Shown one piece after another: positions 26,377-27,560 of a DNA stretch of 44,283 nucleotides (the first letter of the stretch is position 1; the number at the start of each line of letters is the position of its first letter). The notes under the pieces are model-generated. The model saw nothing but the letters and a program-made list of their open reading frames with translations. It was not told the DNA's origin and searched no databases. The stretch comes from Escherichia phage CEC_Kaz_2018, in the sequence record NC_073070.1, one strand, 5' to 3'. The position numbers and the translations under genes were made by a program.

Positions 26377-26419
26377 TTGCAATCCGCATGTTGGTTGCAC
26401 TATATTGGTTGCACACCAA
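26377..26419 (+). promoter_or_regulatory. sigma70-like promoter (TTGCAA-N18-TATATT) with TTGGT-N5-ACCAA dyad over -10/+1
   Basis: TTGCAA 26377-26382, TATATT 26401-26406, dyad TTGGTTGCACACCAA 26405-26419. Confidence 0.5.
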
Positions 26420-26441
26420 CAGAGATATGAAGGAAGACAAA

Positions 26442-26756
26442 ATGGCTAACATGACCGTAGCAACTCCAGTAGACGCCGCAATGGCCCGTTTCAATAAAGC
26501 TACCGTAGCGAATACCTTTACCTTTCACGCAATGCGTAACGCGGAAGCGCTGAATCTGTGCCAGAGCATGAATGCATCTGAAGCGGCAAAAGCGGCGATC
26601 AACTCCGCGACATTCGATAATCCGGCTTGCGGCCTGGTCCCGGCATCTTTCATAAACGCGCTGGTCGAAGCCTTTAACGATTTCATGTGCGTCGATGCCG
26701 TTGAAGCGGTATGTGCTCGCTTAACTTCCACCGGCGGTAACATCAAATTCAACTAA
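26442..26756 (+). CDS. hypothetical protein (104 aa), moron gene 1
   Basis: ATG 26442 with AAGGAAG upstream; opposite strand to flanking structural genes. Confidence 0.5.
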   Translation: MANMTVATPVDAAMARFNKATVANTFTFHAMRNAEALNLCQSMNASEAAKAAINSATFDNPACGLVPASFINALVEAFNDFMCVDAVEAVCARLTSTGGNIKFN

Positions 26757-26795
26757 ACCAATCGGGGCGAAAGCCCCTAAAATTAGGACACAAAA

Positions 26796-27560
26796 ATGAG
26801 ACTGACGAAAGATATTAAAAATCAGATTCTGGCTAACATTCTGCGCGATCACGAAATCGCATCCGAAGCCAAACAAATCATGATGGACTCTCGCGACCTG
26901 GCGTACGCAATCACGCTGGACTGTATGCCGGACGGCATTCGCACATTCGCCGCGCTACGCGAGCATATCCTGCTAATCCGCGATGACCAGTCGCAGATGT
27001 ACGGCGTCAGCGTATACACCAACAAGGCGACGTATAGTTATAACTCCGACCGCCCGAAGGGTATCGGCAGCGTCTATAACGCCACCTTTGAAATCAACGC
27101 AGGCGGCAATGTTCGCACCTTGTCATTGAGCGGCGACGGTCGCCAACACCGCATACATCGCGGGTACTGGGAAGAGAAATATATGAATAAGCTCTCGCCT
27201 GATCTCGGCGATATCGTTCCGGGGTTCGAGACAGTTATGCTGGCTTCAGTGTGTGAAGTGGACGAGGACGGGAAAGCGCTGCCGATATATCTCCCTCGCG
27301 GTCGCGTAGACTACCCGGCAGATCATGATTTCTGCAAGCGCCTGGACCGCAACGACAAGGCACGTCGCGAGTTGCGCGCGAAGTATGACGCGTTCAAACT
27401 CACCGTTACCGGCTTGCTGGATATGCACAATACGGACAAGAAGCTGATTAAGGTATGGCCTAAAGTTGAGCAATTCATCCCGTACCCGGACAAGCCAAAA
27501 TCCACGGCGGTGGCGCTGGATGTGAAAACACTCAACGAGATTTGCGGCATTCCGTGCTAA
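26796..27560 (+). CDS. hypothetical protein (254 aa), moron gene 2
   Basis: long ORF following gene 1; ends at bidirectional terminator. Confidence 0.55.
   Translation: MRLTKDIKNQILANILRDHEIASEAKQIMMDSRDLAYAITLDCMPDGIRTFAALREHILLIRDDQSQMYGVSVYTNKATYSYNSDRPKGIGSVYNATFEINAGGNVRTLSLSGDGRQHRIHRGYWEEKYMNKLSPDLGDIVPGFETVMLASVCEVDEDGKALPIYLPRGRVDYPADHDFCKRLDRNDKARRELRAKYDAFKLTVTGLLDMHNTDKKLIKVWPKVEQFIPYPDKPKSTAVALDVKTLNEICGIPC

Follow-up and report, generated by a model that had tools for sequence, protein, structure and literature searches.

The genome of Escherichia phage CEC_Kaz_2018 (NC_073070.1; the window, that is the whole stretch of 44,283 nucleotides analyzed here), a lytic coliphage of the genus Dhillonvirus, carries between its head scaffolding and spanin genes a two-gene unit (26377-27560) whose second gene, nmad5, encodes a member of the Nmad5 family. 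This family displays neither an enzyme-like fold nor conserved catalytic residues, its members reside in early replication and recombination contexts in other phages, and the position directly upstream of nmad5, occupied in the window by a gene for a 104-amino-acid (aa) protein, is a polymorphic slot that holds different genes, or none, in related phages. The identity and the anatomy of the unit are nearly certain. As to its role, we are somewhat inclined to view it as an accessory operon under early control through an operator shared with other operons, with a cargo slot and with a non-enzymatic adaptor as the Nmad5 product; the mechanism of the latter is what we infer in this picture.

The initial annotation had found no assignable motifs in either protein. 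This stands for the 104-aa protein, for which Pfam, NCBIfam, PADLOC and PDB sequences gave no match, but not for the 254-aa product of nmad5 (26796-27560, + strand), the fixed gene of the operon. The latter is a full-length version of 'Nucleotide modification associated domain 5' (Pfam PF18757; score 195.8 bits with the cut-off at 27, E = 1.2e-57), with residues 1-253 aligned to model positions 1-206 of 206, and matches phrog_1965 (E = 1.2e-59). It is 85% identical in amino-acid sequence to Nmad5 of phage SM_S22. In both SM_S22 and SM_A8 the same gene occupies the same spot between the spanin and scaffold genes, with the same promoter and operator and with Lys216. These two phages have supplied a published phenotype for nmad5: mutants escaping the Tmn defense system carry nmad5 K216E (SM_A8) or K296E (SM_S22), and reverting the escape mutation restores sensitivity to Tmn (Yamashita et al., Commun Biol 2025, PMC11846954). 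The nmad5 deletion phage is viable and still sensitive to Tmn, and the gene could not be cloned, apparently through toxicity (PMC11846954). The published escape allele is thus of the gain-of-function type, as opposed to a case of wild-type Nmad5 inhibiting Tmn (PMC11846954). In line with the host-interaction or defense-related function that the initial annotation had proposed in broad terms, the orthologue can therefore be dispensed with, is toxic on cloning and determines how the encounter with Tmn ends (PMC11846954).

The two residue numbers given for the escape site refer to one position. The annotated coding sequence of SM_S22 nmad5 (CDS0006, 334 aa; the extension corresponds to 5770-6009 of the SM_S22 locus, L002) is over-extended by 80 codons upstream, running through the promoter and operator, so that, counted on the true protein of 254 aa, K296 becomes K216. 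The same over-extension gave rise to the K296 numbering, to the 'longer N-terminus' ascribed to SM_S22 Nmad5 (PMC11846954) and to the idea that the SM_A8 protein is N-terminally truncated.

Sequence conservation was computed over 136 family representatives drawn from 840 clusters at 50% identity, which span lytic siphophages, Shiga toxin (Stx)-converting prophages and hypermodifying Pseudomonas phages. The conserved positions, in the numbering of the window protein, are R2, L3, I11, G104, T213, L217, W221, P222, E223, P229, L246, N247, G251 and P253, and no conserved set of Asp, His or Cys residues was found across these representatives. Such a constellation, made up of hydrophobic residues together with Pro, Gly and Trp, resembles an interaction surface more than an active site. 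The AF2 model of Nmad5 (pLDDT 73, pTM 0.71) is mostly helical; a Foldseek search of the PDB with this model gave no match, a search of BFVD recovered family members only, and a search of PDB sequences with the Nmad5 profile returned only noise (E of 0.04 or worse).

The escape site lies within the signature motif of the family, T213-x-x-K216-L217-x-x-x-W221-P222-(E)223 (27432-27464, + strand), and in the window position 216 is Lys (27441-27443). The window allele bears two private substitutions in this motif, A220V and E223K (27453-27464), which neither SM_S22 nor SM_A8 has: it has VWPK in place of the AWPE (AWPEVEQF) present in all 40 nearest protein clusters. Position 223, which is Glu or Asp in 130 of the 136 representatives, has thereby undergone a charge reversal seven residues from K216. 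Among the family-conserved residues tested it is the only one that deviates, with R2, L3, G104, T213, L217, W221, P222, P229, L246, N247, G251 and P253 all kept. This allele may be a naturally occurring variant of the escape type or else a mistake in the sequence record.

Members of the family are encoded in early replication or recombination modules. In mEp235, PhiR12_4 and many Stx-converting phages, a relative of Nmad5 is encoded in the PL operon, directly 3' of N. The lambdoid and Stx versions (e.g. mEp235_037, E = 3.7e-72) belong to the same family and share an early context beside recombination genes, in an accessory-gene slot of lambdoid phages; they differ in residing in the long antiterminated operons of temperate phages and in showing only about 33% identity, confined to the C-terminal third. 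In a group of phages of about 40 kb (L027-L032, from IMG/VR; positions 3400-7300), nmad5 lies between a gp60-like gene and genes for a DUF2800 exonuclease and an Enc34-type single-stranded DNA-binding protein. The primase-helicase of these phages is 49% identical to window gp58, and their replication module is shared with window 40424-44059, with Nmad5 encoded where the window has the small open reading frames (ORFs) gp61 and gp62. Other neighbors of the family include RecT with an SbcC-like ATPase and, elsewhere, DUF2800 with DNA polymerase A. Since related phages carry Nmad5 inside a shared replication operon, the gene appears to have been relocated into the head module in Dhillonvirus, retaining the type of operator used by the replication operons. 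The possibility that window gp60 (40424-41032) is a divergent Nmad5 paralogue was rejected (hhalign probability 0.3%); gp60 occupies the operon position of the upstream neighbor of Nmad5 in the related phages, and has only a C-terminal stretch in common with it. In a distant Dhillonvirus-like phage (L026, 3995-5203) with an Nmad5 of 37% identity, the next ORF opens with a second copy of the C-terminal motif of Nmad5 (PFIPAEQKKTGTAVALDTATLNAIWG), which suggests a partial tandem duplication.

Transcription of the unit would start from a sigma-70-like promoter, TTGCAA-18-TATATT (26377-26406, + strand), predicted at the level of the consensus with 9 of 12 matches. Its architecture is kept at every Dhillonvirus locus examined except that of JL1, where no -10 hexamer was found. 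A perfect, operator-like palindrome, TTGGTTGCACACCAA (TTGGT-N5-ACCAA; 26405-26419), covers the probable start of transcription and overlaps the -10 hexamer at its 3' end. The initial annotation had proposed that this operator is shared with the operon at 36770 and that of the primase, and this is borne out by the presence in the window of three copies of TTGGT-N5-ACCAA against 0.03 expected from shuffled sequences. The second copy (37091-37105) lies in the promoter of the gp55 operon (gp55, 36770-37075, - strand), and the third, TTGGTTAATGACCAA (40216-40230), follows the promoter-like TTGACA-17-TAGTTT and precedes, on the - strand, the gam-like gene and that for the primase/helicase. Each copy is placed just 3' of a -10-like hexamer and 5' of a Shine-Dalgarno sequence. 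Of the 19 related Dhillonvirus loci examined, 17 contain the identical 15-mer and one a version that differs by a single base; L026 lacks it, with no TTGGT-N5-ACCAA within 1.2 kb upstream of its Nmad5 gene. We also considered and rejected the palindrome as a 5' RNA hairpin: as RNA it folds only weakly (-3.5 kcal/mol, z = -1.1) and would itself contain the predicted start of transcription, and for both reasons a DNA site, that is a putative operator, is the more likely reading. Because the same operator-like palindrome marks all three promoters, the nmad5, gp55 and primase operons would probably be switched together, early in infection, by one DNA-binding regulator.

Several further elements were observed in and around these promoter regions. 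The promoter spacer of the unit contains one copy of TGGTTGCAC (26392-26400), and a half-site-like word, (A)TTGGTTGCA, recurs at 5490-5514, 7180-7188, 26392-26414, 37096-37135, 40390-40398 and 43195-43203, in or beside several promoter-like regions and frequently within the spacer, immediately 5' of the -10 hexamer, or as the -35 hexamer (TTGCA). With one mismatch allowed, TGGTTGCAC has 19 copies against 11 expected, a mild enrichment only, and the word may be a phage-specific promoter or regulator element separate from the full palindrome. The AT-rich DNA that separates the start of the scaffold gene from the nmad5 promoter contains two palindromes that overlap, TTATC-AGC-GATAA and GCGAT-N7-ATCGC (26345-26367); these are conserved in all Dhillonvirus loci examined, and could be a regulatory site for divergent transcription of the scaffold and capsid genes. 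The ORF annotated as gp56 in Escherichia phage B2 (44 aa; window 37072-37206) overlies a promoter and operator and is probably spurious.

Between the operator and nmad5 lies the most variable part of the unit. Alignment with SECphi18, KarlBarth and Gluttony delimits an insertion of about 364 bp relative to phages with an empty slot (26422-26785, + strand); within it, the 104-aa gene is preceded by a leader and a Shine-Dalgarno sequence of its own and followed by a hairpin. The distance from the palindrome to the nmad5 ATG tracks the content of this slot. It is 31-32 nt where the slot is empty, as in SM_S22, SECphi18, KarlBarth (Bas17), Gluttony, LM40P1 and the loci L019 and L023-25, and 208 nt in L020, which has a 53-aa ORF. 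With the 104-aa gene it comes to 391-393 nt (393 nt in the window; also L015, L016, L021 and JL1), with a 135-aa gene to 487-489 nt (L018 and L022), and with a gene for a 170-aa beta-clamp-like protein to 625 nt (EP23/L017 and 'rolling'). The 104-aa and 135-aa cargos have a common leader. SM_A8 resembles the window in having the 104-aa gene upstream of nmad5, and differs in this from SM_S22. Full-length nmad5 is found in about 144 Dhillonvirus-type records, the 104-aa gene in about 59 of them and the clamp-like gene in about 16, with nmad5 alone behind the same operator in about half and other slot states in the rest; these counts are redundant, as GenBank and RefSeq copies are both included, and several of the loci are IMG/VR genomes. 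Presence-absence polymorphism is thus seen for the 104-aa gene, and nmad5 is present in essentially all relatives, being truncated only in JL1 (L014, 1600-2230). There the 104-aa gene is kept and nmad5 is cut to 74 aa; together with the missing -10 hexamer this gives the appearance of a unit in natural decay, and the truncation is consistent with the dispensability of nmad5. The operon would accordingly be described as one fixed gene, nmad5, preceded by a swap slot that is either empty or filled by one of at least four unrelated small genes, here the 104-aa gene. The earlier notion of a fixed two-gene unit does not survive this comparison, with nmad5 standing alone in about half of the records and unrelated genes replacing the 104-aa gene in others.

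The cargo in the window, the 104-aa gene (26442-26756, + strand), belongs to phrog_24635, to which no function is assigned. In GenBank it is annotated (as B2 gp36) from ATG 26388, giving 122 aa (26388-26756). Its homologues are all of 102-109 aa and begin with M-x-x-MTV, and ATG 26388 lies inside the promoter/operator, 18 codons too early; hence ATG 26442, which is preceded at 5 nt by AAGGAAG, is the better start, in agreement with the length of 104 aa given in the initial annotation. Relative to its counterparts in related phages, the gene shows synonymous to non-synonymous codon differences of 9:2, 14:4 and 28:8, an excess of synonymous changes that marks it as a real coding gene under purifying selection. 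The protein is mildly acidic (pI 5.1) and helical by prediction, and its most conserved feature is the motif FDNPACGLVPxxF, in which FDNPACGLVP is invariant. Its AF2 model (mean pLDDT 51) is too poor for a fold search, and a candidate zinc site formed by H29, C63, C83 and C91 was rejected, C83 being Val in the homologues from Pantoea phage and Ackermannviridae.

These homologues, at 52-64% identity, are encoded by Pantoea phage AAM37 (Dibbivirus) and by Ackermannviridae (PH4, ZQ1 and others), where they lie in early DNA-metabolism neighborhoods. None of the neighboring proteins tested matched Nmad5; in particular, a 201-aa gene located 3' of the homologue in Ackermannviridae was rejected as a hidden Nmad5 (hhalign probability 0.1%, and a different PHROG). 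Given this, and the variable content of the slot between relatives, the comparisons indicate that the 104-aa gene is a horizontally mobile, swappable passenger and not an obligate partner of nmad5. SM_A8 carries the gene and is still blocked by Tmn (PMC11846954), so the 104-aa protein does not counter Tmn effectively. The cargo insertion ends, in the 39-nt gap that separates the 104-aa gene from nmad5 in the same reading frame, with a GNRA-loop hairpin, GGGGCGAAAGCCCC (26764-26777, + strand; -11.4 kcal/mol, z = -3.4), with no T-run after it, which is possibly an RNA stabilizer or a weak attenuator.

The 3' boundary of the unit is a terminator-like, G+C-rich hairpin, GGGGCCATCACGGCCCC (27567-27583), which overlaps the stop codon of the o-spanin gene. 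The initial annotation had called this terminator bidirectional; the hairpin indeed scores on both strands, with RNA folds of -15.5 and -14 kcal/mol, and its U-tract on the + strand is interrupted (AGAAUUAUUUU), making its strength as a terminator uncertain. The flanking genes, those for the head scaffolding protein (phrog_206; 25586-26287) and the Rz-like spanins (27574-28015), are on the - strand, so that the earlier description holds: the structural block is interrupted by an accessory unit that runs in the opposite direction with predicted signals of its own. In lambdoid phages such promoter-gene-terminator units between structural genes were described as morons by Hendrix and colleagues. 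The unit in the window resembles them in its autonomous predicted signals, with a promoter (26377-26406) and a terminator (27567-83) of its own recognizable at the consensus level, and likewise in its insertion between head genes, its opposite orientation and the presence-absence polymorphism of its first gene. It differs in that the phage is lytic and has no prophage expression, in the conservation of nmad5 across the genus, and in sharing its operator with the phage's own early operons, which would tie its expression to theirs instead of leaving it independent. The proposal of a two-gene moron therefore fits the sporadic 104-aa gene and does not extend to nmad5.

The window was also compared with Escherichia phage B2 (MG581355 / NC_073069). 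Both are of 44,283 bp and collinear base for base with no insertion or deletion, and they are separated by substitutions at 4,030 positions (70 of which are N), mostly synonymous within genes. Three long blocks are identical to B2, namely 8442-9520, 10336-11763 and 26401-27554, the last of which corresponds exactly to the coding part of the nmad5 unit. Beyond these blocks other Dhillonviruses are closer to the window than B2 is, for example Zar3M with 97% over 1-6000. The window sequence thus differs from the deposited B2 genome and is not simply the same record; the sequences of both proteins of the unit are also valid for the B2 record, except for the last residue, which is Cys in the window and Arg in the record.

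Two other small genes of the window recall proteins with published links to defense systems. The product of gp08 (5569-6033, + strand; 154 aa) is 76% identical to SM_S22 CDS0035, which has the same position between HNH and methyltransferase genes and is probably the ORF35 anti-Tmn protein of Yamashita et al., for which small sequence differences are reported to determine whether homologues inhibit Tmn (PMC11846954). The 74-aa ORF gp10 (6486-6710, + strand), located between DNA methyltransferase and HAD-phosphatase-like genes, has the size and position described for Ksap1, the SECphi18 protein that activates KpAvs2 (bioRxiv 10.1101/2024.01.31.578182). Genes of the nmad5 unit were considered as triggers identified through SECphi18 escape mutants and rejected, the published triggers being Ksap1 and the portal protein.

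Taken together, these observations lead us to propose that the unit is a non-essential accessory operon with a sigma-70-type promoter, in which Nmad5 would act as a mostly helical adaptor or regulator, and not as a base-modifying enzyme, together with proteins of DNA replication or recombination from the phage or the host. It would contact its partners through the conserved TxxKLxxxWPE motif and the likewise conserved LNxxxGxP helix at the C-terminus, its adaptor activity would be toxic when the gene is expressed alone, and the K216-containing motif would decide whether the Tmn KAP-NTPase defense stops the infection. The 104-aa protein would act independently, most likely as an early host-interaction or DNA-metabolism accessory factor. 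A more far-reaching form of this proposal, tentative and rather doubtful at present, is that Nmad5 is misnamed altogether: it would be a widespread early phage adaptor whose TxxKLxxxWPE motif and C-terminal helix dock on a conserved component of the host, be it one of replication, of recombination or one associated with the membrane, this contact would be what the Tmn KAP NTPase senses, and the slot would be a Dhillonvirus hotspot of exchangeable counter-defense or host-takeover genes with the 104-aa gene as an example. If so, the E223K allele of the window could be a naturally occurring escape-type variant.

A number of points weigh against the adaptor operon as we propose it. The adaptor idea derives from negative evidence, namely the lack of a fold match and of catalytic residues, combined with gene neighborhood. 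The AF2 model of Nmad5 is of moderate confidence only, with residues 64-95 and the tail below pLDDT 50, so a small novel active site could escape notice, and roughly half of the family shares A175-D176-H177. Phage M6 has its Nmad5 gene after those for a 5-hydroxymethyldeoxyuridine (5-hmdU) DNA kinase and its helical-domain partner, and in M6-like phages it lies beside the kinase gene. Promoter activity, operator binding and early timing are all read from consensus-level sequence alone. As to the regulator of the palindrome, no helix-turn-helix or other DNA-binding domain was detected in the 20 early window proteins scanned. Finally, the frequencies of the slot states come from redundant database records.

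The M6 arrangement bears most directly on the reading that the Pfam name conveys and that Yamashita et al. follow, in which Nmad5 is a DNA base-modification enzyme or its helper and Tmn senses, or is blocked by, the modification. The family name derives from gene neighborhood in thymidine-hypermodifying phages. The Pseudomonas phages M6 and SN1 do encode the same full-length PF18757 domain, also in an early DNA-metabolism region, and in M6 its gene is placed not only 3' of those for the kinase and partner (PMC9476957) but also 5' of that for a dUMP hydroxymethylase-type thymidylate synthase; the window for its part encodes two DNA methyltransferases. However, the hypermodification chemistry of M6 has been assigned to gp51-gp54, which do not include the Nmad5 protein (PMC8989533). 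The 5-hmdU kinase, aGPT-Pplase, hydroxymethylase and radical S-adenosylmethionine/pyridoxal phosphate enzymes of M6 and SN1 are not among the window proteins checked, and the Dhillonvirus Nmad5 has about 50 extra residues in its poorly conserved middle. Neither the annotated window products nor a Pfam scan of 20 unannotated early proteins revealed a dUMP hydroxymethylase, 5-hmdU kinase or aGPT-Pplase, although the same models readily detect their targets in M6; the gene set of a thymidine hypermodification system of the M6 or ViI type is thus missing from these proteins. Relatives of Nmad5 are, moreover, common directly after N in lambdoid and Stx phages, and the family offers neither an enzyme fold nor conserved catalytic residues. 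Deletion of nmad5 leaves Tmn sensitivity as it is (PMC11846954), which is hard to reconcile with Tmn sensing a modification made by Nmad5. We accordingly consider a modification role quite unlikely. A functional pair, in which the 104-aa protein serves a toxic Nmad5 as an antitoxin or regulatory subunit would, by neutralizing it, chaperoning it or giving it specificity, might be suspected from the single operon, the close in-frame spacing of the two genes and the failure to clone nmad5 alone (PMC11846954). Yet nmad5 is solitary behind the same operator in many Dhillonviruses, among them SM_S22, the very source of the toxic clone, and elsewhere the slot is filled by unrelated genes. Conversely, homologues of the 104-aa gene occur in other phages where none of the tested neighbors matches Nmad5, and in JL1 the gene outlasts an intact nmad5. 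The obligate co-occurrence typical of toxin-antitoxin systems is thus not observed, and such a pairing appears very unlikely.

The 104-aa protein could instead itself be an anti-defense factor, with the slot as a counter-defense hotspot and Nmad5 as an incidental companion. This would agree with a hypervariable slot of at least five states behind an apparently early promoter, with the horizontal movement of a gene for a small, acidic protein between unrelated phage groups, with the purifying selection acting on it, and with the presence in the genus of other small defense-interacting accessory proteins, anti-Tmn and Ksap1. Against this, the 104-aa protein is similar to no characterized protein, one of the alternative cargos is a beta-clamp-like replication protein and hence not a typical anti-defense gene, and SM_A8 is blocked by Tmn in spite of having the gene; we regard this reading as unlikely. 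For neither protein of the unit did homology to characterized proteins indicate membership in an anti-defense family, the libraries searched not being specific for such families. A routine role for both proteins in the head module, be it in structure, decoration or assembly, is suggested by position alone, between scaffold and head-morphogenesis genes, and is hardly credible in view of their opposite orientation with a predicted promoter and terminator of their own, the viable deletion of the orthologue (PMC11846954) and the residence of family members elsewhere in early replication and recombination operons. The initial annotation had likewise set the unit apart from the structural genes around it, and homology searches of Pfam and PHROG gave no structural-family match for either protein.

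Part of this picture was already in place: nmad5 belongs to a curated Pfam family and has an orthologue with a published phenotype, and the passenger falls in a PHROG with no function. To this our analysis makes a modest addition in the form of the swap-slot anatomy, the shared operator, the equivalence of K296 and K216, the replication-module context, the non-enzyme-like features of the family and the private E223K. The biochemical role of Nmad5 is so far one implied by its name. Escape from Tmn, the only genetic result for Nmad5, is reframed by three of the results presented here, namely the occurrence of Dhillonvirus nmad5 without the modification genes tested for, the operator that it shares with replication operons, and the location of the escape site in the signature motif of the family. 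The slot upstream of nmad5, in turn, offers a practical place to search for new accessory or counter-defense genes, as well as a safe insertion site for the engineering of therapeutic Dhillonviruses.

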